The notes below the pieces were generated by a model. That model did not search any database. It saw only the letters and a program-made list of their open reading frames with translations, and was not told the DNA's origin. A stretch of DNA of 63,992 bases, counting the filler, from Stramenopiles sp. TOSAG23-2 (lineage: Eukaryota), in NCBI GenBank assembly GCA_900128395.1. It is 5 parts of 5 records of this genome, joined end to end, with 100 filler letters (N's around TTAATTAATTAA, not from the genome) between each part and the next. Parts side by side here need not be neighbours in the genome. Positions count along the whole stretch, not along the records: positions 12,940 to 25,742 come from LT649833.1; positions 25,843 to 38,637 come from LT649834.1; 3 more parts are not named here. One strand, written 5' to 3'. How positions within the stretch are numbered: the first letter of the stretch is position 1; every line of letters begins with the position of its first letter. Both the position numbers and the translations under genes were made by a program. Positions 13,210-57,600 of this stretch are shown here, piece by piece.

Positions 13210-13317
13210 ATAATTTTACTTCCCGTGGTAAATAATATGCTAAATACTCAATCTCAGGAATAATATTTCAATAGTGAAGCTCTAATGCACGTCTGCAAAC
13301 TAATACTCCACAAGCAC
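13210..13317. repeat. Dispersed non-coding repeat, copy 1 (related to 58169-58460)
   Basis: Identical 19-mer ATAATTTTACTTCCCGTGG plus shared CTCAATCT and AAGCTCT.ATGC...GCAA.CTAATACTC...AAGCAC blocks. Confidence 0.75.
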
Positions 13318-13398
13318 GCGAGTAAATTTTAATTTTTTTGTTGTCGTCTGACCCCTCCTCTTTCGAATTCATTTATACTAAAAAAAAACCTCCTTCTT

Positions 13399-15484
13399 TT
13401 ACAACTTTGATCCAACTGCTACTTTTTTATTCGTTGTTTTTGCTTCAACTTGATTATTAAATGCAGCAACTGGTGTCTGCATGTATTTATATTTGATATC
13501 TCTTGAGATCATAGCATTATAACGAAGGTCCATCCTACCTTCCAAATTCATTGTCATGCCATCACGTTCTACGGTATTATCTAGAATACAATAAAATCTA
13601 CCATTTTGTGCATGGTTAAATACTTCCGATGCTGCATAATCAGCAGTCATTCCATTATTCCAAATTGCTTGAAACCCTCTTACGGTATTCACGCTTGATT
13701 GGTCATTTGTGCGCCCTACTTCTGCTTTTACTTCCCCACCAGTTGCTTGTTCGCCAGATTGTAATAAATCTGTAACTACAATTGCTGGGCATAAAACAAC
13801 AACTCTTGTCCCGTTAGCTAACGGGTTTGTTGGATATGCTTCCAATTCTCTGTACACTTCTTCCGCTAAACCAAGTGCTGCAAGTTTTGAAGTCCCATAT
13901 GGACCAGATCCACCAAACATAATGCCAGCACTACTTGCCGTTATTTCAATGATACATGGTTTATCTACTGACGTTGCATTTGCCATATGTGGAACAAATG
14001 TACGTAACGTATTTGCCGCGCCAATAACATTCACGTTATATGTAGTTTGCCATTCTTTTTCTGTGCCTGTAGAGCGTAGCGTATAAAAATGAGTGATGTG
14101 TTAGAGAGGATATCTTTTATCATGTTTAGGAGAATAGAATTTACTTGCCACTTAAGATGGTACTACCTGTAAAAATCACACCAGCATTTGCTCCTATAAA
14201 TTGAATTGATTTCCCTGGAAATGCAGTTGTAGTTGATTTCAATAAAGCTTGTAACGATTCTTCCGATGTGACATCACAGATGAAACCTTCAACTCGTCCA
14301 TTTCCTTTTTCCATTCGCAATGTGCGTATAGCTTTGGATAATGGTTCTTGCCTAACATCACTTAAAACTACATTCATGCCTAATTCTTTTGCTTTTTTCC
14401 CCATCGCATAACCCATTCCAGTTGCACTTCCAGTTATAATCGCAACACCATCTTTCAATTTCTTTATATCCATTGGCATTGCAGCTAATTGTTGGGTTTC
14501 TGTGTTTAAATACGGTGCAATTTGTCTTGATTTCATTGCTGAATATCGTTGTGCAATTCTCGCATCCATATTATCAGAATAAGTTGAATTTACTCCTTCA
14601 ATATTCGATAAAATACAATAAAATTTCTCCTCTTCAACATGTTTTAAAACTTGTTGCGCAACCCAATCTGGTGTCATACTTTTTGCCCATCGTGCTTTAA
14701 ACATCTTTACAGTAAGATCGGATACTTTATCATTATTACGTGCCATTTCAGCTTTCACTTGACCATTTGTAGCTGCTTCACCAGATTGTAATAAATTTGT
14801 ATTAGTAATTGTAGGACATAATGCTACAACTTGAATTTTACCTATTGCACCTGCTGTCATTAATTCCGTATGCAACGCTTCTGCTATACCTAATGCAGAT
14901 AATTTTGACAAGTTATATGGTCCATTGCCACCAAAAGCAACACCGGCAGCAGATGCTGTTATTTCAACGACAGACTCTGTATCTTGTGCTATCAAAACTG
15001 GTACAAATGTATTTAATGTTAAATAGACACCTTGTACATTAACATCAAATGTTTTTTGCCATTCTGCAGCTGAACCTGAAAATAACGTTGAGCCTGTGAA
15101 TCTGTGAAACGTAACGTATGAAAAAATAATGTGTTAGAGAGAGTGTCTTTTATATAGGTTTCGGGGAATTGAATTAACTTACATAACACCAGCATTTGCG
15201 CCAACAAAACCAATTGGATTGCTTGGAAATGCATTTTGTACTGAAGCTAATAAATTTCGTACTGAATTGCCACTTGTTACATCACATACAAATCCAACTA
15301 CCTTCGTATTGCTATTTAACGCTTGCACTTGTTTGACTGCATCATTTAAGACATCTTCTCTAATATCTGTCAATACGATATGCATATTTAATTTTTGACA
15401 TTCTATTGCTAAGTTTAATCCTAATCCACTTGCCGAACCAGTAATCACAGCTACTTTGTTTTTTAATTTTTTCAAATCAAACAT
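13399..15484 (-). CDS. Tandem double short-chain dehydrogenase/reductase (SDR-SDR), 3 exons (15484-15183, 15101-14149, 14066-13399), 640 aa, PTS1 SKL
   Basis: Two copies each of TGSAxGxG, CDVT, NAGV and YxxxK (YNLSK, YGTSK). Both splices keep frame and give matching GSTLFSGSAAEWQ / GSTILSGTEKEWQ. Confidence 0.9.
14067..14148 (-). mobile_element. Introner-like spliceosomal intron B (82 nt, GC-AG)
   Basis: GCAAGT donor, CTCTAAC, TACAG acceptor; full-length similarity to the introns at 15102-15182 and 29731-29814. Confidence 0.75.
15102..15182 (-). mobile_element. Introner-like spliceosomal intron A (81 nt, GT-AG)
   Basis: GTAAGT...CTCTCTAACACAT...CATACGTTACGTTTCACAG; similar to introns B and C. 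Confidence 0.75.
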
Positions 15485-15648
15485 GGTGGGGATGATAATA
15501 ATAATACTATAACGATGATGTAATAATAATATTCACACAATACTTGATAGCACTGATAATTCTTATTAATGTTCACACGGAATATGTTATACTTTGTTTT
15601 GTTGTCTAGTATAATTAAATATATGGTATAACTCGACGAGTATAAAAA

Positions 15649-16275
15649 TTAATAAATATAAACTCGACGAGTCAGTAAAATGATAAATGTATATATATAG
15701 TGTAGTATATATACAGTATATAATAAAAAAATAATATCTTTTTGGCCATAGCAACAACTATCTTCTAATACCTGTATTACTTGTTGTTGAAATACAGCGC
15801 CTGTACATTCTACTGCTGTGTGGGCCTGGTGGGCAACAATACCAAGTATAACAAAAGGAAAAATGATGGGTTTGTGACGCTTATACCTTAATTGAATTAA
15901 TCTTAGTCTTACCTCTCTACCTCTCGTGCAAACTGGCAAACTTCGCAAAAACTCAAACTTTTTGTCTGATTTATACTTGTTTGAATATATAATTATGATC
16001 CATTTGATAGGGTATATCTTTTTTTGGATTACGCTTTTGATTTCATTGATGGTTGAAGAAGAAGTGTTTTGCACATCACAAGCGGGCACACACCACCGGC
16101 ACATCAGTATTATAGTATCAAAAAATATGTATCTTCCATACCTCCAACAACAGAAATAGAATATTAACATTAGAAGAATTATCATACAGATAGAAAATGT
16201 TATTATGTAACATAAACATTCTTGTATTGTTGTAATATTTTTAAATATAAAGTTTCCTTGACTAAAGTATTCCAA
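15649..16275 (-). CDS. Possible small membrane protein (doubtful ORF)
   Basis: 208-codon ATG ORF with a hydrophobic Cys-rich segment; long for AT-rich DNA, but no recognisable domain and the 3' half looks intergenic. Confidence 0.25.
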   Translation of the reverse strand: MEYFSQGNFIFKNITTIQECLCYIITFSICMIILLMLIFYFCCWRYGRYIFFDTIILMCRWCVPACDVQNTSSSTINEIKSVIQKKIYPIKWIIIIYSNKYKSDKKFEFLRSLPVCTRGREVRLRLIQLRYKRHKPIIFPFVILGIVAHQAHTAVECTGAVFQQQVIQVLEDSCCYGQKDIIFLLYTVYILHYIYTFIILLTRRVYIY

Positions 16276-16325
16276 TAGGGTAGATATTGTTATATATATA
16301 TATATATGTTTATTTAAAAGAACAG

Positions 16326-17609
16326 ATGGATTTATTACAAGATGTAAAAGTAGTAGAGTTATCTACATTTGTTGCTGGACCAGCTGCTGGTGGCATATTA
16401 GCAGATTTTGGTGCGGAAGTCATACGCGTTGAACAAGCATCTGGAGATATCTTCAGAGATGCTTATACGTCGTTAGTCGGTGTAACTTTTAAAGATCCAT
16501 ATTCAAGATCGCCATCGTTCTATGTTGATAATCGTGGTAAAAAATCTATCGTATTAGATTTAAAAAGACAAGATTGCTTAGAAGCTTTTTATAAATTATG
16601 TGAATCTGCTGATGTTTTCGTTTCGAACCAACGTGCATCTGTGTTGGATAAACTAGGCTTGAATCCCCGTGACATGCATAAACGTTTTCCACATTTAATC
16701 ATATGCCCTATCACGGCATACGGTTTGGAAGGGGCTGATGCATCGCGACCTGGTTACGACGTAGGTGCATTTTGGGCAAGGTCTTCTGCTGCATGGACAC
16801 ATACACGTGAAGATGATCAAAATATCACTAGTGGTGCATCTGCTTTTGGTGATCATGCAACTGGCATGGCAAGTGTAACGGGTATATTAGCAGCATTGCA
16901 TAAACAACGTATTACTGGCAAAGGTGATATTGTTAAAACGAGTTTATTGCGAACTGGTGTTTATTTTAATTCATGGGGAATTGCAAATAATTTGCAACCA
17001 AGGATAAATAAGGATTTAGGTGGAAGTGGTCGAGTACCAACCACACCAGGTGGTGCTGGTATCCGTGATAAAGCAGCAAACCCATTGATTAATGTTTACA
17101 AAGGCAAAGATCAAAAAAGCTTTTGGTTATTAGGTTATGAAGCCGATAGGCATTGGCCAGGTGTGAAAACGATGATGAATTCAGTTGGTGCTACATACGT
17201 AAATGATGAAAAATTTAATTCATTAAGAGGCAGAATGAAAAATAATTTGGAATTGATTAAGTATATGGATACTACATTTCAAACCAAAAATCGTGATGAA
17301 TGGTTAAAGATATTTGATGAGTTTCAAATATGGTTTCAACCAGTACAAGATACAGCTGAGGTTATACATGATCAACAAATCATAGCAAATAAAATGTTGG
17401 CTAAGATTAAACCATCAAAAGATGATATCAAAGGATACGAAACGTTGCCATCTGTTGGTCCACCTGTTGGATTTGAAAGTTCCGGGGATGATTTAGTGTT
17501 CAACCATGTCCCAACCGTTGGTGAAAATACATATGAAGTCTTGAAAAGTCTTGGGTATACCGATGAACAAATTGCTAAATTAGGCAATCCAAAAGGTGGC
17601 AAGCTGTAA
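16326..17609 (+). CDS. Family III CoA-transferase (CaiB/BaiF/AMACR-like)
   Basis: VVELSTFVAGP, LADFGAEVIRVE, NRGKKSIVLDLK, ADVFVSN, PGYD, GDHATG, PTVGENTYEVL; first ATG at 16326; ends GKL. Confidence 0.93.
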   Translation: MDLLQDVKVVELSTFVAGPAAGGILADFGAEVIRVEQASGDIFRDAYTSLVGVTFKDPYSRSPSFYVDNRGKKSIVLDLKRQDCLEAFYKLCESADVFVSNQRASVLDKLGLNPRDMHKRFPHLIICPITAYGLEGADASRPGYDVGAFWARSSAAWTHTREDDQNITSGASAFGDHATGMASVTGILAALHKQRITGKGDIVKTSLLRTGVYFNSWGIANNLQPRINKDLGGSGRVPTTPGGAGIRDKAANPLINVYKGKDQKSFWLLGYEADRHWPGVKTMMNSVGATYVNDEKFNSLRGRMKNNLELIKYMDTTFQTKNRDEWLKIFDEFQIWFQPVQDTAEVIHDQQIIANKMLAKIKPSKDDIKGYETLPSVGPPVGFESSGDDLVFNHVPTVGENTYEVLKSLGYTDEQIAKLGNPKGGKL

Positions 17610-18039
17610 TAAATAATACGACAACAGTTTTAAGAGAGAGTTCACGGAGTTTATAGAGAATATCAGAGAGAAGAGAATATAATAAAAAATGTTTATGGAA
17701 AAAAATGTTTTGATTGATAGTATATATAAAACAGTAGTAGATTTTTATTTTAAGGTGCAATTGATAAACCAGTTTATTAAGGACAAAAAAAGACCTCTAT
17801 TAAATTTATTATTACTTTATACATGTAGGACATATATGTATTATATATAAAAATCAAAATAGACGATCCCTCCAGTAGTATAAATAAAATAGTCTATATA
17901 TAATTAGAATAATATATATGTAATATCAAAATTAAATAATCAGAGTACATATTAGTACCTACTACAAAATAGATCCCTCGGCAATACATATATATATTAT
18001 ATATAGTAGAAAAAATATACTCTTCGTAAAATTCAAAAG

Positions 18040-19014
18040 ATGACTTCCGGTGATGGCACAATTAATTCAGGCCAGGATATCTATTCGTATTCACAAATTA
18101 TTCAAGGGATTTTAATATTGCTTTCTTCAATAGTTGCTGTAGGAGGCTATGTAGTTCAATCACGAGCGGCAAAGAAACAACATATACTAGAAAGTAGACT
18201 TGAGCATCTACGAAATTTATTGGAAAAATATGTTGGTCCTGCACAGTCACTTGGGTCTACTGCAAATACACTTAGAATGGGTTTGCTGAAGTATGTGTAT
18301 CATGTTCATAAAGGAAAAAAAGATATGGGATATAGGGAAATGATGGATGATATATACGGGGAAGGTGCACTTTCAGAAGTTATAGCTGGGAATATTTGTG
18401 AATATGATAGATTGCTTTCAAAAGAAGTGGAAAATGAAATTGTTGCAAATCCAAATTCAACCTTGGCAAAAATGTATCGACGTACAATGCGATTGATGAT
18501 ATATGAATATATGCAACCATTAGCAAAATTGCTATCTATTAATATGGGTATTTTCCCTTTGCCTTCTCGGGAAGAGTTTAAAAGACGTTTTCCTGGACAT
18601 CGCGGTGCAACATTAAGAAAAACTTTTTTATTATGGCAATGTTGCTGGACACAAGAAATGACTAAAATAATTGAAGATGAATGGGACAAAGGTATTTATA
18701 CCAGTGTTTTTACTACAATGACACCATACCCAACACATTGTAATTCATTGCTAGCAGGGATGTTATCCGATTTGAAGAAAGAGATAGAAACCCTTACTGA
18801 AGGATTTATAAAGGCAACAGATAATCTTTCAATGCAAGAGCAAACAAAGCTTTCCCAAAAATTGCATCAATTAAAAAAAAAGGGAGAAAGTGGTGATAAA
18901 GAAAATAATAATAAAAAAAAGAACAAAGAAGTTGTTGTTAATATGAATAAAACAACATTAACCAATAATAATGGTAGTAAGAATGCCAGCGCTAGCAAAT
19001 ATGTGGCAAAGTGA
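18040..19014 (+). CDS. Hypothetical protein with one N-terminal transmembrane helix
   Basis: 324-aa ORF with coding-like composition; IIQGILILLSSIVAVGGYVV helix; basic/N-rich tail. Confidence 0.7.
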   Translation: MTSGDGTINSGQDIYSYSQIIQGILILLSSIVAVGGYVVQSRAAKKQHILESRLEHLRNLLEKYVGPAQSLGSTANTLRMGLLKYVYHVHKGKKDMGYREMMDDIYGEGALSEVIAGNICEYDRLLSKEVENEIVANPNSTLAKMYRRTMRLMIYEYMQPLAKLLSINMGIFPLPSREEFKRRFPGHRGATLRKTFLLWQCCWTQEMTKIIEDEWDKGIYTSVFTTMTPYPTHCNSLLAGMLSDLKKEIETLTEGFIKATDNLSMQEQTKLSQKLHQLKKKGESGDKENNNKKKNKEVVVNMNKTTLTNNNGSKNASASKYVAK

Positions 19015-19393
19015 TATATATTCATATCATATATATATATATTTTTTTTTACTGAAGACGAACTTTGTATGAGATATCACACACACATGTTTTAGGAGTA
19101 TGGTTTCGTACAAAACAAGTATACGTAGAAAATGCTTTATCTTTTTTTTTGTATTATATACATAACAGTTCCATTTTATAAAAATAAAATTTCGTATGAT
19201 ACGATATATATATATATGTCTTTTTTTTAAATTTACGCGTTACAAAAATTCTCTCCTTGTTTCTTTGTCTTTTAGTATGAAATGCATAGTCCAGTAGTCT
19301 TCACACACACATAATAGATTACGAACGTATATTTTATTAAAATAAATATCAAAAATAAAATATCTCTCTCTCTCTCATCTCCATTTTAACTTT

Positions 19394-21382
19394 TCATTTT
19401 TTCAAACCACTGAAATCATGTTCCAGTTGCATGACAATTTCACAATGGTTTGATTGTGGAAACATATCGACTGATGTTGCACGAATTGGTTTGTATGGAA
19501 ATCCTCTTACATTTCTTTTCTTTGGTAAACATAATTTATAAATATCCTCAATAAATGAACCTTTTGGATTACATGATACATACACTAAACAATCAATAGC
19601 TCTACACGTACGTAAGGCATGAATGACACTTGGATGCAAACCAGCACGTGGAGGATCAACTATTGCAACAACTTTTGTATCATTTTTTACATTATTTCTA
19701 ATGCTACTGCTACCACTGCTACTATTATCATTACCATCATCTTTCTTCGATGTTGATGTTATTTTCAACAACATTTTCCCCAACACATCTTCTGCTTTAG
19801 ATGCAATAAATTCAGCATTCGATATGTTATTATGCTTCGCGTTTTCAATCGCATCTTCTACTGCAGATTCACACATTTCTACACCAATTAATTTATTGAC
19901 TTTATCCCCCAATTTTGACGTTACACAAATACCAATTGTTCCGGTACCACAACATACATCAACTATGGTGACTTTACTATCCTGGTTATTATTATTATCA
20001 TCTTTTGCATTTTTATCAAAACTGCTAGTGCAAAAATCGGATACGATTGAATATAATTTATTTGCTCCTTCTGTGTTAATTTGAAAGAAAGAATTTGGTG
20101 ACATTTTGAAATCTAAATTTAAAATAGTATCTGCTATTGTTTTGGTTCCATACAAATGTTCTACTGGATCATTGCTACTAGGTTGTGACGGGCCGGTGTA
20201 ATATTGTATAAAAAAAGATTTCCAAACGTTTTCATCACCACCATTTTTAAACCATAATTTCAATTTTTCTACTTCTTCCAACCAATGCATTGGAGGATTT
20301 GACATATCAATATTAATTTGCAATATGATCATCATGTGCTTCGAGGTAGAACTAAATTTCACCGTCATTTGCCTCCATGTACCTTGGTGCGTCATGTAAT
20401 CATATGGTGGAAACTTCGATTCGACTAAAAAATTATTAAATAATTCGCATGCTTTTAACACATGTGGTGGGCAAACAGAGCATTCATTTGGTTTTGCAAC
20501 TACTAATGTATCTCCAAATGAACCCAAACGAAAGCCAACAGTAACTTTTCCATCTTTATCTTTTCCTACTGTAAATTCACATTTATTGCGATAACCATGT
20601 TCAACTGGTGATGGGCAAATATCTTTATATTCACAACATCTTCCTTCAAAATCTCTAGATTGCACCCACGTTGGTAATCTATCAAAGGCCTTCATACCAG
20701 AGTTTTTTTCATCTTTTTTATAAATTTTTAACAAATCTTTTCTTGTTTTTCGTTTTATTTTTTTCAAAACCGTCATCATTTCTTGATTTTTTTGTTTTAA
20801 TTGATCGTCATATGACATATTCCAAAGTGGCATAACTTGATTGCGGATATCTTTTGGTTTTCCATCATCTACACGCTGCTTTTTATCAGCGTGTTGTTCC
20901 CCATTGTCGTTGCCATCTCGTTGTTGATTCAAATATGCTTCTCGTTTCCTAGATCCTTTTGCACTTTTACTATTACTTAAATTTGTCACCTTATCGCTTA
21001 CGATTAAATTTTTTCCTTTGTGCACAATTTCTGGAATCTTTAATAGTGCTTGTTGTTTTGACTCTTCATCATCAAAGGTAACAAATCCATATTTTATATG
21101 TCGTACTGGTCTCTTTTGACAATTTTTAAATGTTATCTTGTGTTTCTGTAGTAATCTCTTAAAATCTTTACGATTATCAAAATCTCTTAAATTTGTAACA
21201 AAAATCTTTAGCGAAGTTTGTCCATAATTATTATTATTATTGCTAGAAGAGGTGGATGAAGAGGAATAAGAAGAGGCATTATTATTATTATTATTATTAT
21301 TACTATTATCAGCAGCATCCTTAGTAATAACAGTAGTTGTTGTCGCGGTTATATCAATTGCTACATCTTGTTCTGTCTCCAT
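19394..21382 (-). CDS. TRM2: tRNA (uracil-5-)-methyltransferase TRM2/TRMT2A
   Basis: N-terminal RRM (YGFVTF), YRNKCEF, SPNSFFQIN, DVCCGTGTIG, IVDPPRAGLH, YVSCNP, VDMFPQSNHCE; first ATG at 21382. Confidence 0.93.
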   Translation of the reverse strand: METEQDVAIDITATTTTVITKDAADNSNNNNNNNNASSYSSSSTSSSNNNNNYGQTSLKIFVTNLRDFDNRKDFKRLLQKHKITFKNCQKRPVRHIKYGFVTFDDEESKQQALLKIPEIVHKGKNLIVSDKVTNLSNSKSAKGSRKREAYLNQQRDGNDNGEQHADKKQRVDDGKPKDIRNQVMPLWNMSYDDQLKQKNQEMMTVLKKIKRKTRKDLLKIYKKDEKNSGMKAFDRLPTWVQSRDFEGRCCEYKDICPSPVEHGYRNKCEFTVGKDKDGKVTVGFRLGSFGDTLVVAKPNECSVCPPHVLKACELFNNFLVESKFPPYDYMTHQGTWRQMTVKFSSTSKHMMIILQINIDMSNPPMHWLEEVEKLKLWFKNGGDENVWKSFFIQYYTGPSQPSSNDPVEHLYGTKTIADTILNLDFKMSPNSFFQINTEGANKLYSIVSDFCTSSFDKNAKDDNNNNQDSKVTIVDVCCGTGTIGICVTSKLGDKVNKLIGVEMCESAVEDAIENAKHNNISNAEFIASKAEDVLGKMLLKITSTSKKDDGNDNSSSGSSSIRNNVKNDTKVVAIVDPPRAGLHPSVIHALRTCRAIDCLVYVSCNPKGSFIEDIYKLCLPKKRNVRGFPYKPIRATSVDMFPQSNHCEIVMQLEHDFSGLKK

Positions 21383-21770
21383 GATAGTATGTTGATAATT
21401 CTTCACGTGACTGGCTAGATATAATCTTATCTATACGATCTTAATAGTTTATATATGTGTATGTACATATATATGTATGTGCCTGGTGTATGGAAATATA
21501 TAAATGTATATACAGTATATACCAGGTATATTAATATATTATAAAAATAATTCTAAAAAAAAAAAAAAAACTCTTCAACAATAAAAAATAATTTTATGGT
21601 GGTGGTGTTGGTAGTGTTGCTGTGATACTACGAGGAGGTTAAATACTAGTGAGTCATTTAAGGTATTAATAGGCAGAAAAAAAAGTGCCGTATAGTAGTA
21701 GCGTTTTAGTTTCCATAACCCTTGTAGACTTCAAAGAAGATAGATCTCCGCGTTGCAATATTATTATTTT

Positions 21771-22673
21771 TTAAACCTCTTCTTGTTGTTTGTATGTCGT
21801 ACTTTTTTTTCGTTTTTTGTTCTTTCCAATCATTCTAGAAAAATAACTTTTAATAGACCGTTGTTTTACAGAATTATTATCACAACCACTACCTGATAGA
21901 ATAATTCCACTTTGTTTGTCACCATCGTAGATTAAATTAAAATTTGTTAATGGAAATCTCTTCCCTAACTTTAATTTTTCTTTTGCATTATTAATAACTT
22001 TTACAACATGTTTCCCTTTATAGCGACATAGACATCTATATGCAGGTAGATTTACTTTATTTGCTTCTTCGCAAATATGACTGCCATAATTATGAATACC
22101 TGGTGCACCAAACATATATACAAATGAGGTTGCCAAAAAATTGAAAGATACATCACTATCTTTCGTTTTATAAAAAATTTCACCTGCATTTCTTATCGTC
22201 TTTAATGCATCCGCTTTATCTTCTTTCTCTAACTTTAAAAATTGTGACAAGGATTTACAATACCTTCTTGCATGATTGTTGGCAAAGCTTTTTATTAACA
22301 AATCACGTTGCTGTCGCTCTACAATATATTCTTTCTCTAACTCCATAATTTTATCTTTTTTTTCGTCAGATCTTTTCTTTAACCACACATCAAAAATAAA
22401 TATAGCTTCTTTCATTGCAGGTGTTTGATGTGGGTGATGTACCGCACGTTCTTTCATTGCTCTTATGGTCCAGTAACTTTTGTATTTACATCCTGGTTGA
22501 GTAGCCAATTCGATCGTTTTTGTTGCTACGATAGCATTTTTAAAGCCATTGCCTTTTATAGTTGTTGCCGGGTCGTTATCCGTAAAGAGATTCTTAGGTA
22601 TTATCGTAGCATTATTATTATTATCTTTTTCTATTATTCCATGGCATCTATCCCATTCTTTTGCTTCCTCCAT
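21771..22673 (-). CDS. Uncharacterised protein with C-terminal PIP-box-like motif and basic NLS-like tail
   Basis: 300-aa ORF; globular-looking LFTDNDPATTIKGNGFK...RAVHHPHQT segment; C-terminal QRSIKSYF then KNKKRKK. Confidence 0.75.
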   Translation of the reverse strand: MEEAKEWDRCHGIIEKDNNNNATIIPKNLFTDNDPATTIKGNGFKNAIVATKTIELATQPGCKYKSYWTIRAMKERAVHHPHQTPAMKEAIFIFDVWLKKRSDEKKDKIMELEKEYIVERQQRDLLIKSFANNHARRYCKSLSQFLKLEKEDKADALKTIRNAGEIFYKTKDSDVSFNFLATSFVYMFGAPGIHNYGSHICEEANKVNLPAYRCLCRYKGKHVVKVINNAKEKLKLGKRFPLTNFNLIYDGDKQSGIILSGSGCDNNSVKQRSIKSYFSRMIGKNKKRKKSTTYKQQEEV

Positions 22674-22933
22674 ATATTAATAATAGTCTATATATATATA
22701 TATATAGTATGCCGTTGATTTACTCTATTCGTCCTTTCTACAGCTTGCAACAAATATAATCCGTCAACACGCACATCTATTTATTATATGTTGATAACTG
22801 AAATTTCTATTTTCGTTTTTTCTGTTGTTGTTGTTGAAGTTAGATTAAAAGATTTTAAAGTTCGTTCTTCGAATATCAAAGCTTTGCTGGTTTGAGTAGC
22901 TCTTATCTCTCCAGAGAGTTCTCTCTGATCTCT

Positions 22934-23332
22934 CCTATAGGGGTGCAAAAACCTGGGTCACAGTATTCACCTGCTATAGTGGTATATACACTACATAGCA
23001 TTATAATGGTATTACTATATTATATTTATTTAATAGGTACATACCATTGGCTACTGTCATTAATTTTATCAGTCCATTTTCGCAATTTGATGCTTATATA
23101 CATAAATTATTAGATATTGATATATGGTTTTTGGCTACAAAACGAAAGTTGCGAAAATCTCCTGCATTCCAATTCTTGGTTCTTGCCGTGAATCACTTCG
23201 TACTTATGGCTATACTAAATACCTGTAATATATCTATCAAATATTTACAATGGTATGTCTATCTTGTATGCTATATCCACTGTATATATAGCAGGTGAAT
23301 ACTGCGACCCAGGGTTTTTGCACCCCTATAGG
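22934..23332. mobile_element. MITE-like non-autonomous element (~400 bp) with ~45-bp terminal inverted repeats
   Basis: CCTATAGGGGTGCAAAAACCTGGGTCACAGTATTCACCTGCTATA at 22934 matches the reverse complement of 23287-23332 with one mismatch and one indel; no internal gene. Confidence 0.8.
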
Positions 23333-23735
23333 TATATTATTTTAATGCATGCCTGGCATGTAGCACTGTAGTATTAAGATAATATAGCTGATCGGATATT
23401 AATTTTTAAGGTAAACATTTCAGAGAACATGGTACTGCGATAATATTATAAATCAGAAAAGAATTTTTCTTTCTGGATAAATTTTAATTTTATTTTTTAG
23501 ATTTTTTTGTGTGGTGGTGTTAGCTACCTGGTAAATATGATCCAATTTATACTTTTATCATACCAATATAAATATAATATATGCTGGTATGCATATGTGC
23601 ATATATATAATATTATGGAAAAATAATAATAAAAAAACAGAATGAATAGGAGATAAATTTGAATAACTAAAGAAGAAACAACAAAAACGAAACGAGGTAT
23701 ATAAGAACGTCATCAATTTCTTTGATGTCAATAAT

Positions 23736-25190
23736 ATGGCATATCGTATAACTCATCCTTCGTTGTTTATAAGACGTGGAAGAAGTCGTATCGTTTCATT
23801 GCAACCACGACAATCAAAGGCATGTTATTATACAACATTTAATAATAAGATTAATATTTATAATAATAATGTAAATAAATATACAAATTTAATATGGAAA
23901 AACAAAGTAAATTATCCTATGCAACCAATACAAAAGCGTAATAAGATACACATATTGCCAGAAGCAAAAGAAGCAGAGATTCATGATAGAAAATTATTGA
24001 AATTGGAGCAAGAATGGACGACAGGAAAATTGTATAAATTTAAAGGCAAAATACATATTGTTAAATGTTTAAAAGATGAAAAATGTGCAATGGATGCTTT
24101 TCTTGCAGATATTGAAAACTCTTCTATTGTTACGACAGGGGGAACAAAAATGAGTGTCATAGGATTTGATACGGAAACCAAACCTGCTACCGACGAATTA
24201 CAACCACCTGCTACGGTGCAAATAAGTACAAAAAACCATGCTATTATCTATCATTTAACGCATAGAAATTTTTTGTTTGATGGAAAGTTTCCACCACTAT
24301 TAAAAGCGGTCTTGGCAAATGATAAAATATTAAAAATTGGAGTTCAAATTGCAACTGATACGGAAGAATTACTATATGCATATGGTGTTACGACATGTGG
24401 AGTTTTTGATATAAATATGTTGTTCCCCAAGAAGCAAGATACAAAAGGCCTTCGAAAATTAGCATCAGAATACCTTGATTTAGATCTAGAAAAAAGCAGA
24501 TCTATTACGTGTTCTAATTGGGGTAGAGCAGAGTTAACAGATCTTCAAAAATTGTATGCTGCGTATGATGCAAGTGTGGTACTAGAAGTTTTCGAAAAAA
24601 TGAAAGAAGTAGATAGTGAAACGTTTCAAGTAGATGAAGATAGAATATTTCATTATTTATTTCGGCCAGATGAATTTATTGGTTTTGAAACAATTACCAG
24701 TACAAAACAAACAGAAGACGATGAAGAACAACTAATGAGCGTGCCAATTAATCCACATGTATATGAAAAACGTTTTAAAAAAATTGAAGAGCCTGTGAAT
24801 GGAAAATATATTATGCCAGGAGGAAGGTATAATACGTATAAACAGAAGACAGTTGCAAAAAGTTTTATTGATTTATATACATCGTATTTATATAGATTTA
24901 TATTAGAAAAAAAGAACGGTACGCATGACGAATTAGGGGAAGAGGAAGAAAAGGAGCCAGTGTTATTGATACCAATGTTTTTTCCTCCTTCATTACGTTT
25001 AATATTCCATAACATTGCAACAAAAAATGATTTGTATTCGATTAGTCGAGGACACCGTGGCGATAATAAAAGGATGTTAGCTATTTGGAAAAGTGAACAA
25101 GCATATAGAACAGTTCGTGATACAAAATGCATTTATCCTAGCCCACAAGAATTAGCCGAGAGGAACAAACTTAATGGGAAAGTTAGTTAA
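23736..25190 (+). CDS. DEDDy 3'-5' exonuclease (WRN-exo/EXD2-like) with presequence-like N-terminus and R3H-like C-terminus
   Basis: GFDTET (ExoI), ILKIGV..D (ExoII), SNWG...QKLYAAYDA (ExoIII); Arg-rich acid-free N-terminus; LRLIFHNIA...LYSISRG. Confidence 0.85.
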   Translation: MAYRITHPSLFIRRGRSRIVSLQPRQSKACYYTTFNNKINIYNNNVNKYTNLIWKNKVNYPMQPIQKRNKIHILPEAKEAEIHDRKLLKLEQEWTTGKLYKFKGKIHIVKCLKDEKCAMDAFLADIENSSIVTTGGTKMSVIGFDTETKPATDELQPPATVQISTKNHAIIYHLTHRNFLFDGKFPPLLKAVLANDKILKIGVQIATDTEELLYAYGVTTCGVFDINMLFPKKQDTKGLRKLASEYLDLDLEKSRSITCSNWGRAELTDLQKLYAAYDASVVLEVFEKMKEVDSETFQVDEDRIFHYLFRPDEFIGFETITSTKQTEDDEEQLMSVPINPHVYEKRFKKIEEPVNGKYIMPGGRYNTYKQKTVAKSFIDLYTSYLYRFILEKKNGTHDELGEEEEKEPVLLIPMFFPPSLRLIFHNIATKNDLYSISRGHRGDNKRMLAIWKSEQAYRTVRDTKCIYPSPQELAERNKLNGKVS

Positions 25191-25429
25191 AGAAATGAAA
25201 CAATTTAACTATGAAAAGAGAGAAGAAGAGAGAGATACGTTTCAAGTAGATGAAGATAGAATATTTCATTATTTATTTCGGCCAGATGAATTTATTGGTT
25301 TTGAAACAATTACCAGTACAAAACAAACAGAAGACGATGAAGAACAACTAATGAGCGTGCCAATTAATCCACATGTATATGAAAAATGAAGTGTGTGCGC
25401 GAATTAGCTAAAATATATATGTGAATAAT

Positions 25430-25618
25430 TTAATACTTTCTTCTGTTGCTAAAAGTACTTATTATCAGGTATATCTTATAGCAAAAGTCTACCAGGTATA
25501 CAGCACCTACCAAGCCCTGGGCAAGCAGCTGGTGTTCTGGTGAAATCTGGAAATGTGAGATGACGTATGCGGGTGTTAAATCTACCGTATCGACGAGATG
25601 ATTCGCACATTCGAACAA
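25430..25618 (-). CDS. Possible terminal exon of a gene truncated by the gap
   Basis: GC-richer coding-like stretch after a CTTTCTTTAG acceptor-like site; no recognisable domain. Confidence 0.3.
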   Translation of the reverse strand: MFECANHLVDTVDLTPAYVISHFQISPEHQLLAQGLVGAVYLVDFCYKIYLIISTFSNRRKY

Positions 25619-25742
25619 CTAAAGAAAGAGAATAAGAAAGCAAAGAAACATATATTAGATATATAGATCTGTGTGGATGAAGACGACGAGATGAGCAAGA
25701 ATAATAAGAAGACAAGTATTCCAAGTTATCAACAATAATCAT

Positions 25743-25842
25743 NNNNNNNNNNNNNNNNNNNNNNNNNNNNNNNNNNNNNNNNNNNNTTAATTAATTAANN
25801 NNNNNNNNNNNNNNNNNNNNNNNNNNNNNNNNNNNNNNNNNN
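25743..25842. other. Artificial contig spacer
   Basis: 44 N + TTAATTAATTAA + 44 N. Confidence 0.97.
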
Positions 25843-28068
25843 ACATTTGGGAAATGGCGTTCTAAATCCATTACGTCACCTTTATGTAGTACATACAATG
25901 TCACATTGGTTAACGCCAATACACTAGCTGTTCGTTCTTTGGAGACTACCATAGCAATCTCCCCGAAATTACTTCCTTTATTTAATACTGCTATTCTTTT
26001 ATTTCTTAATGATACCAAACAACTGCCAGATGATATAAAATACATTGTATCTCCAAATTCTCCTTCACGTGCGATATAATCACCACGTAAACATATCATA
26101 TGTTTCAATCGTGGAACTAGTGCTCTTAAATAATCAGGAGGGGCATCTTTGAACAGTTCACTTTTTATGATTAACGAACGCTTTAAAAACAAATCAACTT
26201 CATCGCTTAAACTTGGTGATAATTCTTTCATAAATGGAATTGGTTCTCCATCAGTAGTGCGATGGGTTGTCCACATAAACCTATAATAATCTAACACACG
26301 ATTTTTTAATTCATTCGGCATATCTAAATTTGTCATACATTCAGCGACATCTTCTAACTTTAGTTCATATAATGTTTTAGCATGATTGACCTTTGCAATC
26401 TGGGTACTAATTTCCCCGATAATATAAGCCATAAATACAATACCAAGTAACATGATAAGCGAACAAAAGTAGTATTGAGTTGAAGTTACAGGATTTATCC
26501 CATCCCCGATCAACATCAAAAGAGTTGTACTAATTTCCCCGATAATATAAGCCATAAATACAATACCAAGTAACATGATAAGCGAACAAAAGTAGTATTG
26601 AGTTGAAGTTACAGGATTTATCCCATCCCCGATCAACATCAAAAGAGTTGTATACAATGATTGAGCATAAAAATATCCTAATGGAATTTGATGAAAGCTC
26701 ATTTTGCTAAGATTTTCATTTTCTTGGTGATGTACCATGAACCAATTGTCAACATCGTCTTCAAGCGAATTTAGATAAAACCATGAATTGACAATGAAAT
26801 GCCCGCAATAAAACAAAATTAAAACAATTTGAAAAAGCTTAAACACACGTTGAATGGGAATATGGTATCGCCCGTTGCCATCCATTTTTTCAAAATGTTC
26901 CTTACATTTAAATACGTTATCAAGAAAAAAAAGTACTTTAAATGCTTGAGGAATCGAACACCAATATCTTCCAGCTGCACCACATGTACCACTTGTAGAC
27001 AATACAATATTAAATGGTATTGCTGCAAGAAAATGAATAATTAAGTATCGCTTCATATTTTCAAGCAAATCTAGATCTTCTACTGTATAATTCGATGCCG
27101 GTTGATGCCGACTGTGGTAAACAACTATAGATAAATGTATCGCATCAAGTATATATATAACTTCCGCCCAATACAATATAAAAGATTCAGACACGTTAAG
27201 TGTCTCAGGAACAAATGCAAATAAATACGTTGATGTATAAAACGATAGAATCATTGTAAAAAATACTAAAACATCAAAGAAAAAACGTACTTTTCCAGAT
27301 GGTCGGTACATTTCGCTCACGTGTGACTTTAAATCTCCAAAATCATAGCCCATAGTTACCGTTTTTGCTAATAATTTGTCACCTTTTTGTAATCGAGTTT
27401 TAAAAAACTTAACAATATCATTATGTATAGCATCTCGATCTTCTTTTAATTTTTTTTTACTTTCTTGATGGACTTGTTTCATTGCTTGTCGAATTTTTAT
27501 TGCAGCTTTCATTTTCCCCCAATGCTTGTTTGCTCTTTTACCAGCTTTTTGTAGCATCGAATCTCTTCGTTTAATTTTAGTCTTAGTCAGATCAGATGGA
27601 CCATTGATTCCAACGTTTTCCTCTATTTTTGATATTCCTAAAATTGATGCACGGTTCTCGCGATTTTCTTGTCGTTCCATTACGTCCTCATCGCCTAATA
27701 TGGAACGTCTTTGCTCGCGTTCAGAAACTCTTCGCATCGCAGGTTGCTGGCGAATAATCTTATCAGGTGTGATTTTTGTTTTATTACCACTTTATTTATT
27801 ATTTCCATTGTTTACATTTTCATTAATAGTATATTCTTCATCATTTGATAACGCTTCATCGTCTGACTCATAATCCGTTACGTTGCTGGCGAATAATCTT
27901 ATCAGGTGTGATTTTTGTTTTATTACCATCACTTTTATTATTTCCATTGTTTACATTTTCATTAATAGTATATTCTTCATCATTTGATAACGCTTCATCG
28001 TCTGACTCATAATCCGTTACGTTGCTCACTATAGATTCTCTAGCTCTTCGAGCAAGTCTTCTTTCCAT
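25843..28068 (-). CDS. Cyclic-nucleotide-binding-domain cation channel (CNG/KCNH/HCN superfamily), 3'-truncated by the gap
   Basis: Six TM segments, C-linker (MPNELKNRVLDYYRF), CNBD (GDYIAREGEFGDTMYFI, FGEIA, RTASV). Removing a ~139-bp duplication at 27743-28026 joins the 28068 start in frame (...IIRQQPAMRR...). Confidence 0.88.
26404..26652. repeat. Exact 123-bp tandem duplication of the pore/S6 segment (probable assembly artefact)
   Basis: 41-aa block TTLLMLIGDG...IIGEIS occurs twice with identical DNA. Confidence 0.9.
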
Positions 28069-28782
28069 TGGACTGGTTCTATTTTATTTTTTTATTTTTG
28101 ATTTCATCTTGTTTTGCAATCTGTTGCTCGATGGATACAATACGTTCCACTTCATCCATATTTATTTTTTTTTGTCTCCAAATATTTTGCTTGTAATATC
28201 TATCTATATATATTATATTATATTAATAATGAAATAATTAAATTATTGAAACGTCTTGGATATATTCTTGTTGATATAACTCTCTTGCTCTTTTCACTTT
28301 GTATTTCAATTATCCAATTGTATCAATAATAGACTTATCAAGTTTTTTTTATAACGTTTGTTTGTTGTTAATTATTAAGTTGTTTTCAAAGAACCAAACT
28401 GGCAAACCACAATGCTATTTCTATATTAATACCAGCCAGGTATCTTTTGTGCGTGATGGATTGATTTTCGCCACCCAGCAGTAAAACTACAGTAAGACAC
28501 AGCACACAACACACAGCAACGTTAATTTATATGTTTTAAGTTTTAAGGGTTTAATAGCTCAGAATTCCTAATAATTCTGGGCTGTATGCTGTATGTACCT
28601 GTAGTAGCAGGTATAATAATAATGCTAATTATATAACAACACCACAACCAAAAAAACAAAAATAAGAAAACGTTATTTTAAAATATGTTGTTCATCTTGA
28701 TGGGTGGTTTTCATTTATACAATTGTACAAAGAAAACGTACATATACATCATTTTTATTTAACGGTAACACTTGTGTATAAC

Positions 28783-30108
28783 ATGAATTTCACAAATGAA
28801 ATCTCTTCCATAGAAGTCGGTGATAAAGTGGAAGTAAAACGCCATGGTAAAGTTGAAATTGCTACAGTGGCATATAGTGGAAAAGTACATTTTACAACTT
28901 CAAACAATGATTTTTTGGGGTTAATTTTAAAAAATCCATCTGGTAAAAATAACGGCAAAGTTCAAGGTAGGGAATATTTCAAATGTAAAAATAATTATGG
29001 TGTGTTTGTACGATCTTCAACGGTAAAAAAGAAAATAGTAGTAGGAGCAGAAGATAATTCTGAAAAAAAAAATGATGACTCGATGGTAGAAAACGTAGAT
29101 ACATTCCCAGTTGCTTCAGAGGGTGAAATGTTATTAAACTTCAAAGAAAATTTAAGAGTCTCAAAATATGGCGCTGATAGTAGTACAACTGCATATACAT
29201 CGAGGACGTCAGCTTCAAAAATATCAACTTGGACAAAAGAAGAACGTGTAGTCGGCAGAAGAAAAAATAAAATTAAAGGCAAAAAAGGGTTTTTAATTTA
29301 TAATAAAGTTGTTGGGGAAGCAGATGGAGGGAAGGAATTGACTGTAGATGAATTTGAAAAATTAAAAGATCTATATTCAGAATCATGGAAAAATAGATTA
29401 TATGTTTATTGGTTAAGAATAAAACCATCTAGAAGAGATTGTAGAAGAATACGTCCACAAAATAAATGTCATTGCGGTCATACTTTCAAATCACATGAAT
29501 GGTGGGATGAAAAAAATCGCAAAGGAAAATGTCGTGTGCCAGGTTGTGAATGTGAATGTTATGAATATTTACATTATCAAGGATCGATGGGGTTTAATTG
29601 TAAATGTAAACATGGAGCAACTTCTCATCGTAAAAATGGGAAACCATCCGAATGTACAGAAAAGGGTTGTCCATGCACTGGATTTAAAACTACATTTAGT
29701 TGCAGTTGTGGTTATCCACATTCAGCACACGTATGTACATTCTATTGAACCTAAACCTAAAATATTGTTATCCTCTCTAACACATCCCCCATTTTCATAC
29801 GTTACGCTCCACAGTCTATGCATTGGGAAACCGTTGAAGAAAGAAGAGCAGCTGGGTTATTGTCTGATGAAGATAAAGTGAAACAACGAATTAAAAATTT
29901 GAAAAAAAATGTCCATGGTTGTGGAAGATGTGCAGGTTGTAAATGTGGTATGGGGTGCAAACGAGGGTCAAATAATCCTTGGCAGAGTAATGGGGCTGGA
30001 TTTGTAATGAAAAATGGTAAAAGCGTTTTCCAAACAACTGCTGTTAAACGAAGTAAAAAAAAACTAAAACATACGTTGTTAGGAGGTGGTGGTAAACGAT
30101 TTACATGA
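28783..30108 (+). CDS. CAP-Gly + FAM221-like Cys/His-rich protein, 2 exons (28783-29730, 29815-30108), 413 aa
   Basis: GKNNGKVQGREYFKC CAP-Gly motif; RLYVYW...CHCGH...CKCKH...FSCSCG...H and ETVEER FAM221-like pattern continuous after splicing. Confidence 0.85.
29731..29814 (+). mobile_element. Introner-like spliceosomal intron C (84 nt, GT-AG)
   Basis: GTATGT...TATCCTCTCTAACACATC...CATACGTTACGCTCCACAG; contains an in-frame stop; last 46 nt are 41/46 identical to intron B. Confidence 0.8.
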
Positions 30109-49390: not shown

Positions 49391-50633
49391 ATGTCAGCAT
49401 CATACGACCCCTTAGCATCACCAATTGATGGTGTAACCTTGAAATTTATTGAGTTAACCAATGGTATAAGGCTTAGAGTTGCATTTGCAGGAGAAGAAAA
49501 AGGTACACCTTTATTGTTCATGCATGGTTGGCCTGAAAGTTGGTTTTCATGGAGACACCAATTGCAATATTTTGGTAAGAATGGTTATCGTGTCATGGCA
49601 CCTGATATGAGAGGCTATGGCTATTCGTCTTGCCCACCAAATGTTGATGATTATGATGTGCACTGTATTGCTAGCGACATGATGTGTTTATTACAATCAC
49701 AAGGATTATCGAAATCATATTTAATTGGACATGATTGGGGTGCTTCTTTATGTTGGAGTTTAGGACATTTACACCCAGAAGTTTTCCCAGTGTTAGCAGC
49801 ACTCTCTGTTCCAACTGGTATGCGCTATCCAAGTGCGACAAATCCATTTGAAGGAATGAAAAAACTGTTTAAAGTTGGGACAGATGAAGAAATGTTTTTT
49901 TATATTTGTTATCACAATGAGCGGTTCCCTGGAACACAAAATGGTCCAGCAGAAGCATCTTATGACGCAAATCCAAAAGAATCAATTCGTACATTTTGGT
50001 CGGATGAGACTATTGAAAGAGATACTAATGGAATCATTACTAGTCCATTCAGAAAAGATGGTGGAATGCTAGCAAGGACCGGAAGACCTAAACGGCTTCC
50101 AAAATGGCTCAGTGAAGCAGACTTGGAATATGTTACTAAGCAATTCAAGCACAGTGGCTTTCGTGGTGGTGTTAATTACTATAGAAATATAGGAAGAAAT
50201 TTTATGTTAACGCCACATTTGACAGGTAAAACTATTGACCAGCCCTCATTCTTTTTAACGTAAGTAAAAAAATAAATATTTTACTATTACCAGGTATTCC
50301 TCTAAGCCTCTAACAAAACTTGTTTCTAACATACTTACTACTCTCCACAGTGGACAATTTGATGTGGTCAGAAATTTTGGTCAAATATTAAGAAACGGTG
50401 ACGCTCCAAATGATAATGATTATACAAATGATCCACAATACAAGCAATTACAAACAGTTTGTACGGATCTAAAACAATTTCATGTTGTAAAACCACAAAA
50501 AGGTGAATCGGCGTCACATTGGATACAACAAGATCAACCAAATAGTGTAAATGAAAAATTGCATAGTTTTTTTAAAGAAACAAGCAACGTATTTGAGAGT
50601 GCTAAAGGTGGTTTAGCAAGTAGTAAAATTTAA
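49391..50633 (+). CDS. Soluble epoxide hydrolase-like alpha/beta hydrolase, 2 exons (49391-50259, 50351-50633), 383 aa, C-terminal SKI
   Basis: HGWPESWFSWRHQ, APDMRGYG, GHDWGA, GGVNYYRN, spliced FLTGQFDVV, SHWIQQD. Confidence 0.92.
50260..50350 (+). other. Spliceosomal intron D (91 nt), possible diverged family member
   Basis: GTAAGT...CTCTAACA...CATACTTACTACTCTCCACAG; restores frame. Confidence 0.85.
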
Positions 50634-54600: not shown

Positions 54601-57600
54601 TGTAAAGACAAGTTCTAAATCACACCAATTCAGATCTTTAGTTAGCAAGCACAAACGTTTTAGTGGTTACACCCCTCTTGGTCTTGCAGTACAAAATAAA
54701 CATATTGAAGTAGTTGAATACCTGCAAAACAATGGTGCTGATCCATTTGGGCGAGAGGATTTACCAGAGGCCGTTATGTCTCTTTTGGATACAGATGATC
54801 CAAGCATGCACGATCCCGCTTGTCCCTACTTTTTAAGTTTAGGTATGTAATATCTTCTTTTTGTTACATATACTCTATATGGCACTCTCTAACAATACTA
54901 AACATTAATAATGAAATAATTATAGGACTTGAACTCAATCGTACAAATCCAGAATCTAGTGCAAAGCTTGAAAGTGAAATTGAAATAAAGCAACGAGAAG
55001 CAAGAACGTGTCTATGGAGAAGTAAGAAGCAAGGTGTCACGGGAACTGCTGCAAATGGCGAAAAAATTGATATTGCACCGGGAACATATGTAATCAAAAG
55101 GATAACAAATGAAAGAGAATATGGAATATTGAGAAAAAAAGAGGAACAGAAAGTCAAAAAAATGGAATTGATGTATGTAAAGGAAAATACTTTTCCAAAC
55201 AATAGATTAATTGGGGACATTGTATGTTACAATTATAGGCCACGTGACTGTATAATTGATGAGAGTGACGAAGACGACAGAAACAATTGGAGATGGATTG
55301 GAAAGATAGAAAGTATTATCGACAAGTCAAAATATAGCATTGCCCCAATACACCACCCAGAAGGTTTGAAGAAATATCATCGGGAACCTGACAAATACCA
55401 AAAAATTGAAATAATCCCTCTAAAAGTACAAAATTTTAATCAGGATAATACTGTAGTATATTTTGCCGACAGCAGCCTGGAGCAAAATGACATAAGCAAA
55501 GAAATCTGGCTAGGTAAATTTATTGAGACGAGGGGAGATAGAACAATAGAACCTATTACTCCATTGGTAGTGCTTCATCGGGGGATAACAGAAGAAGATA
55601 TAATTCCATATAGAGGACAATGGACAACAAATTATACCGACTTTAAGTACATAAATGTTTTAAATGAACAGTTGAACTTCGAACCAAAAGTAGATTCATC
55701 TATAGATCGTCTGAAAAAGGATACTAAAATCAACTCATACGATTTTCAAACGTACTGCAAACAGAAAATTAGAGTTTCATCGTTTACTTCGAACCAAAAA
55801 AAGACACATACAGAAAAGGTCATCTCTCAATTTTTTAGTTCATATAAAAGAAGACAACAGCTAACAATAGAAAAAGAGAATATGTCTGAAGATGCCAGGC
55901 ATCATGATAAAATCAAAATAGTTGAAGAAAAATACTACCAATTTCAAGTACTAAAAGCAGCAACTGATGCAAATACAAGTCTGCATAGGAAAAAAACAAA
56001 AATACGCAAACTGCTCCGCTCCCACTTTTTAGTTAAAAAAGCTAGAGAAAGCTTTGCGATAGAGATGTGCAGGTATAGATTAATTATTTTATTTTTGATT
56101 TTTGCAATAGCATGTTTATCAATATATAGTTTTTTGGGAATGAATATACCTTCTATAAATAACATGAAGGAGCACATAGAAGAGCAAATAAAAGATTCTG
56201 GTATATCCGATGTCGGAAAAAATATAAGTTATTATGACTGGCTTACCACAAATTTTGCGAACAAGACAATGTTTCAATTATCAGAAGAATATATACCATA
56301 TGGCTGTATCAGATTGGAACAATTTCGTGCTGCACGAAAATCACTGGATGAAACATATGTACCTGCAAATATTAAGGACACGAAGAAATATGCCGATTTA
56401 GCTCCAGAAAGACGATTAGCATGGAAAAATATAGAGCATTTTGATTACTTTAAATACGAAACAGCAGGAACCTGTTGGAAAAATGGGAACAAAGAAGCAG
56501 AAAAAGAGAAAACTAAAATCGAACCACCGAAATCGGATTGTAATGAACGCCACAAAACACCCGAACCGCTGGAATGGAACGAAAACTTACAAGGTTTTGT
56601 TGTGGATCTGAACATACCTGGTTGGTCAAAGAAATGTAAACCGGGGACCGATATTTCTTTCCCGAGACAAATGGCACTGCTAAAAAATATGTCGTATTTT
56701 GATGAATTTACGCACGTTGTTAATACAAAGTTTGTAGTATATTCTTTGAATTTGGATACATATTGTACTGTGACTGTGAGTATTCGACAGGATGCCGGAG
56801 GAGATACACACACCGAACTATTATTTGGTATGTTTACATCACCTTCAAACATGATATATGATAGTCAACAAAATAGTACTACTATTTATGGTGTTTTATA
56901 TACGATAGGTTTAATTGTACTCTTTGTGTACGTAGTGTGTGATTTTCTGGAATCGGCAGATTATTACTATTTCCAATTCAAGACCTTAAAGACATTCTTC
57001 CATACTTTTGAATACAGCAGGGAAAGCAGAAGATATAGAAATTGGAAAGTGATTCGTCAAAGACACAAAAAAGCACGTAAGATTGCAACAAAGTGTTGCT
57101 CTTTTCATTCGTTGGCTGAATGTTTGGAGCGACTTAATTTTATCACGGTTCACCTATTTTGTGGGAAATCATATGAATTTATAAGTGCCATCTTTCGATT
57201 TCGGGTTTTATACTCTGCATGTCACGTTGCATTTATATCATTCTATTTTTTACTTCTGCAAAGTAAATCTAATTTAGCAGAGGGAGAAAAGGATATTCTT
57301 ACGAATTTGGATAATATGCAAAACTGCGTATCAGCATTTAAACTACTTTATGTTATATGGATGTTTCTAACGACATTACTTATAGTTCAACAAATTATAT
57401 TGTTTCCACAAACTGGAAACTTTTTTTTGGCTGTAAAAGCAACTGTTTTTTCAGATGAAGTAAGCTACTTTTTCAGTTCGTTTTTTTTCTTTGTAGGCAT
57501 AACAACATTTGCTTTTCTCATACTTTACGGAGACATAAATAGTCAGTTTAGTAGTGTGTGGCAAACTTTTTTGAACTTAGGCACTTTGGCTATGGCTGGG

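Follow-up and report, generated by a model that had tools for sequence, protein, structure and literature searches.

We describe a family of introner-like elements in a 63,992-nucleotide stretch of DNA, filler included, from Stramenopiles sp. TOSAG23-2 (GenBank assembly GCA_900128395.1), which is referred to below as the window. Three introns of the window, designated A, B and C, very probably belong to one such family of an uncultured marine stramenopile, in which the repeated unit, about 79 nt long, forms a complete spliceosomal intron by itself. A copy placed in an exon in the sense orientation would be spliced out exactly, with the reading frame restored, and the unit could in this way spread into unrelated genes. 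An earlier note on this DNA, made from the sequence alone, had proposed from these three introns an intron-generating family without terminal inverted repeats (TIRs). The proposal is borne out by 49 non-redundant sites, by the sense orientation within open reading frames (ORFs) of all 42 cleanly bounded copies, and by a pair of 100% identical copies in unrelated genes.

The window is made up of five pieces, each about 12.8 kb long, with N spacers between them (positions 12840-12939, 25743-25842, 38638-38737 and 51498-51597; paired N runs flanking a 12-base word), so that adjacency across the spacers is not real. Introns A and B lie in piece 2 and intron C in piece 3, which agrees with the earlier assignment of B and C to different contigs, and the sequences read from the window place all three introns at the coordinates and on the strands first reported. 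The copies, their branch-site blocks and their host genes are as follows.

15102..15182, minus strand: intron A, 81-nt member of the family with GT..AG ends, phase 2, short-chain dehydrogenase (SDR) domain 1
15129..15141, minus strand: branch-site block CTCTCTAACACAT of intron A, motif match
14067..14148, minus strand: intron B, 82-nt member of the family with GC..AG ends, phase 1, SDR domain 2
14096..14108, minus strand: branch-site block of intron B, motif match
13402..15484, minus strand: host gene of introns A and B, with short-chain dehydrogenase domains as a tandem pair, each exon translation matching PF00106
29731..29814, plus strand: intron C, 84-nt member of the family with GT..AG ends, phase 0, CAP-Gly + FAM221 gene
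29773..29785, plus strand: branch-site block of intron C, motif match
28783..30108, plus strand: host gene of intron C, CAP-Gly + FAM221, with PF01302 and with PF14753, whose match reaches profile position 147 of 196 where the exon ends

The homology of the three introns spans their whole length: 53 of the 84 alignment columns are invariant, and the pairwise identities are 0.76 (A/B), 0.70 (A/C) and 0.79 (B/C), compared with a mean of 0.52 and a maximum of 0.61 for shuffled B against C (500 shuffles). The hand comparison of B and C in the earlier note was reproduced at the 3' end (41 of 46 positions, ungapped) and closely approached over the full length, where about 66 of 84 had been counted and a global alignment gives 67 of 85 columns. 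Within the window, CTCTCTAACACAT and CATACGYTACG..CAG match only at A, B and C, the numbers of matches expected from shuffles being 0.06 and 0.05, respectively. Scored with nhmmer against the family profile described below, intron A reaches 54.0 bits (E 4.7e-15, full model length), intron B 61.3 bits and intron C 54.4 bits. When A and B are excised, the host gene becomes a single 640-codon frame with two SDR domains. Intron A interrupts the Ile codon of GANAGVI in domain 1, and intron B interrupts a Gly codon of the aligned domain 2, nine codons past the position of A, which is the offset originally claimed. Neither intron adds a codon relative to the other SDR domain, as the earlier note had stated. 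The genes of B and C are likewise unrelated and the introns differ in phase (phase 1 in the SDR gene, phase 0 in the CAP-Gly + FAM221 gene), as had been stated.

Beyond the window, public metagenome contigs were scanned with the pattern CTCTAACACAT, 5-20 free bases and TACGYTACG. This exact-motif scan returned 67 loci (given below by numbers with the prefix L), of which 54 hold a full-length relative of the family with GT/GC..AG ends, while the remaining 13 were set aside as chance matches in unlike, mostly GC-richer DNA. With a profile made from 52 seeds, nhmmer recovered 69 matches at E<=0.01 across the loci and the window, among them second copies absent from the exact-motif matches, and once orthologous contigs were collapsed 49 non-redundant sites remained, three in the window and the rest on metagenome contigs. 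The published operational cut-off for introners, at least four similar introns at non-homologous positions in unrelated genes, is exceeded by this number. The earlier note had asked beforehand for many copies of about 82 nt at unrelated positions beyond the window, and had named a scarcity of copies as evidence against the family; the search of metagenome contigs was positive, with 49 sites rather than a few. The census contigs resemble the window in composition (GC 0.28-0.40), and some come from assemblies that hold orthologues of the window. Prokaryote genome contigs and viral contigs, scanned with a stricter motif, yielded no hits. Among the loci, L002 and L009 correspond to the dehydrogenase locus (94-98% identity) and contain both introns, and L046, L051 and L054 represent the locus of intron C, with orthologous copies present. 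An apparent presence/absence difference at L002 and L009, each with one motif match, was rejected, as the alignment shows both introns and point changes break the exact motif.

All 42 cleanly bounded copies have GT/GC..AG ends and lie in sense within a long ORF; a single phase is clearly the best in each case (209 and 191 open codons, for instance, compared with 4 and 10 in the next phase). They are distributed over phases 0, 1 and 2 as 15, 8 and 19. Six of the other seven copies are likewise in sense in an ORF and one, L067, is ambiguous, which brings the clear cases to 48 of 49. No intergenic or antisense copy occurs among the 49, though 18-24% of the sequence lies outside long ORFs. The host genes are diverse: in a Pfam scan of 10 host ORFs, nine match nine different families, including DAO, lipase 3, cytochrome b5-desaturase, cNMP-binding, sulfatase and family-3 G-protein-coupled receptor, and one has no match. 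Copies identical at 80 of 80 positions occur in L030, in a DAO-type oxidoreductase, and in L034, in a lipase 3/FYVE protein, and the two proteins have no similarity to each other. A second copy is found within 1.1 kb in seven loci (7/7), in addition to the A/B pair, and the joint probability for the seven under uniform placement is 0.0017. In terms of density, the window has 3 copies per 64 kb, and the loci add 7 further copies over 213 kb. Hopping within a gene was considered as the source of this clustering and is not shown by it; the clustering is real, but just one of the eight same-gene pairs consists of mutual nearest relatives.

The unit has GTAAGT at its 5' splice site and CACAG at its 3' splice site, and its CTCTAACA branch site precedes the latter by about 36 nt. 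Its consensus has 79 bases, 6 of them G, and individual copies range from 71 to 101 nt, mostly 79-90. The sequence CTAACA is invariant in all 42 bounded copies, and the branch site and TACG are the most invariant columns of the family. The mean pairwise identity of 0.79 over 861 pairs is inflated by the 20-base ascertainment; 24 of the 861 pairs are at least 90% identical. Linked variants are common to nearest-neighbour pairs, for example among copies with AGAC..CCCT ahead of the branch site, and this sharing of diagnostic variants indicates subfamilies. Decayed second copies, scoring 17-28 bits, are present in L033, L060 and L032. The insertion sites have no flank consensus beyond a weak preference for G or T at -1 (42 sites), and no target-site duplication (TSD) was detected: the junction ambiguity is 1.07 nt, compared with 1.04 nt in 2000 flank shuffles, and flanking direct repeats are not enriched. 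The alignment fold predicts no base pair, and there are no inverted ends or hairpin. Single copies fold at 0 to -3.4 kcal/mol (z -0.2 to +1.7), three of the four folded copies being worse than most shuffles, which is in keeping with the earlier remark that no convincing TIRs were visible. Some copies carry an internal duplication of their first 10-15 bases, giving a second GTAA.. start, and others an expansion of a CA microsatellite before the 3' AG (L035:528-619, L040:1370-1464, L005:1999-2099 and both copies of L047).

Splicing was assessed with contigs of three poly-A metatranscriptome runs (X15, X16 and X17) and of run X6, whose library type is not on record and which is listed as "DNA?", aligned to piece 2; none of the listed RNA contigs covers intron A. 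The junction check asked for by the earlier note succeeded for intron B. X15, X16 and X17 each have a contig that skips exactly 82 nt at this intron, and the joint, 14063->14146, has a positional ambiguity of 4 nt that includes the GC..AG placement. Intron B is thus spliced in RNA despite its GC 5' splice site, and the same GC variant is found in L060. The X6 contig runs unbroken over 14089-15570, through all of A and 60 nt of B, and ends within B. For introns A and C, splicing is predicted from the restoration of the reading frame. We also observed that protein record P0241, which corresponds to the window ORF 14141-14995, has "GK" as its last two residues, translated from the start of intron B. 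Gene predictions for the host organism in databases are therefore cut short at such introns, and gene callers that ignore the 80-nt unit will truncate its genes.

Whether the likeness of the copies reflects descent or a requirement of splicing can be judged from the other introns. The window holds about six introns, of which the following three, D and E clear and F probable, lie outside the family.

50260..50350, plus strand: comparator intron D, 91 nt, nhmmer E 6.9, not significant
54843..54925, plus strand: comparator intron E, 83 nt, nhmmer E 16
7684-7834: probable comparator intron F, profile E 6.9 or worse

The family thus supplies roughly half of the introns in the window, in accordance with the earlier count of three in six. 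Introns D, E and F carry a YCTCTAACA-type branch motif. In A-E, which are 81-91 nt long, the branch motif lies 36-41 nt from the 3' end, and a branch motif at a set distance is a property of the splicing of this organism. Intron D has a CTCTAACA-type branch motif 41 nt from its 3' end and nothing else in common with the family, and intron E shares only CTCTCTAACA, 37 nt from its 3' end. Neither the 5' ATTCTATTCCCC block nor the 3' TACGCTACGCTCC block is present in these three introns, which still join their frames, and since they lack the full pattern, that pattern is not a splicing requirement; its presence in other introns, which the earlier note had named as evidence against the family, was not seen. 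We considered D and E as decayed family members and rejected this reading, because it depends on visual likeness, with profile scores short of significance. Non-family introns in L005, L028, L033, L036, L037, L039 and L041 place a TCTAACA-like branch motif some 35-45 nt ahead of the 3' end, several of them end in CA-repeat runs before AG, and those at L033:5457-5554 and L039:1067-1172 look by eye like decayed family copies. False positives abound in the scan of the loci for non-family introns, and no ratio of family to non-family introns was drawn from it.

Divergence between orthologous contigs bears on the same question. Family introns differ at 29 of 1743 sites (1.66%), compared with 72 of 12274 (0.59%) in the 300-nt exon flanks, so that the introns diverge about 2.8 times as much as the flanking exons; these figures come from 21 of 24 pairs, not all of them independent, the three pairs among L001, L011 and L057 having been dropped for flanks that align uncleanly. 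The point changes in L002 and L009 include hits inside the TACGYTACG block. The faster divergence suggests that the intron body evolves at about a neutral pace. As the other introns share only the branch motif and the family introns outpace exons between strains, the similarity points to common descent rather than splicing constraint, and we hold with considerable confidence that this is a copied family and not a constrained pattern. Intron D is absent from a 63% identical homologue, L020:4857-6005, which has an uninterrupted ORF through that position. L020 was rejected as a sister-species orthologue, as it has no synteny with the window and may be a paralogue, and for this reason we make no cross-species claim. 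Proteins recorded for relatives, at 76%, 70% and 45% identity, continue across site A without a break; such records may derive from DNA or from RNA.

Explanations that do without copying of the introns themselves are all improbable, to different degrees. One would have unrelated introns converge under a species-wide splicing requirement, made up of an extended branch site and a 3' element, or under an intron-borne small RNA. A YCTCTAACA-like branch motif is present in every intron seen, 36-41 nt before the 3' end, A-E fall within the narrow length range given above, and the branch site and TACG are the columns that vary least, all of which such convergence would account for. It is nevertheless very unlikely, given that D, E and F lack the ATTCTATTCCCC and TACGCTACGCTCC blocks and score at E 6.9 or worse, that family introns change about 2.8 times faster than their flanking exons and tolerate changes inside the 3' block, and that the family has linked subfamily variants, no fold and no Rfam match in the window (scan at gathering thresholds). 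Duplicated genes or domains that carried an intron along, or gene conversion between paralogues, could be suspected from the presence of A and B in two paralogous domains of one gene. The earlier note had argued that these two were not simply copied with the domain, and the evidence is on its side: A and B differ in codon position and in phase, their likeness of 76% is higher than the DNA likeness of about 59-60% of the surrounding paralogous domains, and C and at least 10 other hosts are unrelated genes. This explanation, highly improbable in general, is already refuted for the family as a whole. The least probable of all, and in our judgement barely worth entertaining, is an artefact of assembly or amplification, or an adapter-like sequence read as an intron; it draws on exact two-copy tandem duplications in piece 3 that do look like assembly artefacts, but the same introns occur in independent metagenome assemblies, the X6 contig includes A in full and B in part, and in RNA contigs B is excised exactly.

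Granted the family, the choice lies between copying through RNA and copying at the DNA level. In the former, which we consider about evenly balanced between true and false, an excised intron would reverse-splice into a transcript, the product would be reverse-transcribed to cDNA, and the cDNA would recombine into the gene. We favour this route since the unit equals the intron to the base, has no TSD or inverted ends, occurs only in sense in genes, and recurs in the same genes. The latter, plausible but in our estimate short of an even chance, supposes a non-autonomous element moved in trans by a transposase or some other DNA enzyme that leaves no duplication, with only spliced, sense, genic insertions surviving. 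DNA transposition fits most introner families according to a published survey, which also describes families lacking a TSD or TIR, some of them with 100% identical copies (PMC9860276), and antisense insertions would be lethal, and hence unseen, in a genome with 76-82% of its sequence in long ORFs. Against a DNA route stand the lack of a TSD of any length, with zero ambiguity at 17 of 42 junctions, the lack of inverted ends or a hairpin, and the count of 0 of 49 copies outside ORFs in sequence of which 18-24% is not in long ORFs. Helitron-type elements insert at an A|T site, and this is not matched either (A at -1 in 8 of 42, T at +1 in 14 of 42).

Several observations weigh against the family as we describe it or against its spread through RNA. 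Ascertainment by an exact 20-base motif inflates similarity, and the census, being made of metagenome contigs, may mix related species, the window itself having three copies only. Neither an allele nor an orthologue with an empty site was recovered; the introns are retained in all orthologous contigs, which are 94-99.7% identical. The exclusively sense, genic placement could also reflect selection after insertion of DNA, and decayed intergenic copies would escape the motif scan. Mutual closest relatives make up only one of the eight same-gene pairs (L019, 98.5%). Support from RNA is confined to intron B, and no reverse transcriptase, transposase or longer master copy turned up, although no search aimed at them was made. 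With these points in mind, we advance tentatively, and as somewhat doubtful in its full extent, the view that this is an RNA-propagated introner outside fungi: an unstructured 79-nt intron that reverse-splices in an abundant uncultured marine stramenopile, tends to land again in genes that already have a copy, supplies about half or more of the introns, and leaves older copies to decay into "ordinary" introns. If propagation is through RNA, the identical copies in unrelated genes would imply that the element is still active.

The family fits the general definition of introners and is in this sense a known kind of intron-making element. A close parallel is with the introner-like elements (ILEs) of dothideomycete and other pezizomycotine fungi. 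Fungal ILEs are described as multi-copy, near-identical introns without TSD or TIR, biased to genes and read as propagated by reverse splicing of RNA (PMC9860276), as decaying into ordinary introns (PMC3609843), and as exceeding regular introns in length and having a stable predicted secondary structure (PMC3609843). Our family resembles them in its near-identical introns in unrelated genes, the absence of TSD and TIR, the genic placement and the presence of decayed copies, but it differs in that its length equals that of other introns (D and E, 83-91 nt), its fold is close to 0 kcal/mol, and its host is a marine stramenopile, not a fungus. A second comparison is with introners that resemble miniature inverted-repeat transposable elements (MITEs) in Micromonas pusilla and Aureococcus, which are reported to make new introns on insertion into exons of these marine picoeukaryotes, the element supplying splice signals (PMC11282704, PMC9860276); also reported for them are 3-nt or 8-nt TSDs, TIRs and a splice site co-opted from the TSD, with 12 nt added to the mRNA in Aureococcus (PMC11282704, PMC9860276). 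Repeated introns in exons of marine protists are common to both, whereas our family has neither TSD nor TIR, holds both splice sites inside the unit, and adds no codon.

Families without TSD and TIR have a precedent in a 2022 survey in which 3,325 genomes and 520 marine genome bins were screened (PMC9860276). The survey reports many such families, some with 100% end-to-end identity, mostly in aquatic protists (PMC9860276). The family presented here fits this description and may already be among the families listed there. Our literature search found no paper on such a family in heterotrophic marine stramenopiles among the matches listed, which is not proof of unpublished status, and a text search of the literature with the motifs returned only unrelated primers. 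Intron-poor protists of the Trichomonas and Giardia type have rigid, extended splice motifs. The introns analysed here are similar to theirs in having a conserved branch motif at a fixed distance from the 3' splice site in all cases; in contrast, this motif covers about 9 of 79 positions, and the remaining family sequence is absent from D, E and F.

The origin of new spliceosomal introns is a long-standing question, and introners are, to our knowledge, the only process known to make introns in bulk. We know of no direct demonstration of the reverse-splicing route. Most characterised introner families resemble DNA transposons (PMC9860276). With its built-in splice signals, its strict sense placement in genes, and neither duplication, inverted ends nor structure, the family offers a clean natural candidate for reverse splicing. 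The dehydrogenase gene is present in public marine metagenomes and poly-A metatranscriptomes, and because the host is common in such data, the presence or absence of copies across populations, as well as RNA intermediates, could be sought in existing data sets.

The host organism itself reads, from its genes, as an uncultured marine stramenopile. For the tRNA uracil-5 methyltransferase the best named matches are oomycetes at about 41% identity, with environmental proteins ranking higher at 71% and 52%; a DEAD-box query was tried as a lineage marker and discarded as uninformative. The GC content of the window is about 0.33, and about 76% of it lies in ORFs of at least 100 codons. A tRNA scan of the window found nothing.

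Piece 3 contains six two-copy tandem duplications of 57-139 bp with 97-100% identity, at the following positions.

26404-26652, piece 3: tandem duplication
27743-28026, piece 3: tandem duplication
33043-33159, piece 3: tandem duplication
34798-35057, piece 3: tandem duplication
35465-35675, piece 3: tandem duplication
35931-36149, piece 3: tandem duplication

Two of the six fall within ORFs, where they repeat 41-42 residues of a channel-like protein and of a kinase, and the duplications look like assembly or amplification artefacts, not biology. Over the AT-rich intergenic stretches 12940-13366 and 22761-23614 the summed depth of run X6 contigs is very high (5378 and 640) with many false joints, probably owing to cross-mapping of low-complexity DNA. 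At window positions 1535-4072 lies an ORF of 845 residues in which, by eye, an N-terminal part resembling a pyridine-nucleotide oxidoreductase is fused to a part resembling a selenophosphate synthetase.

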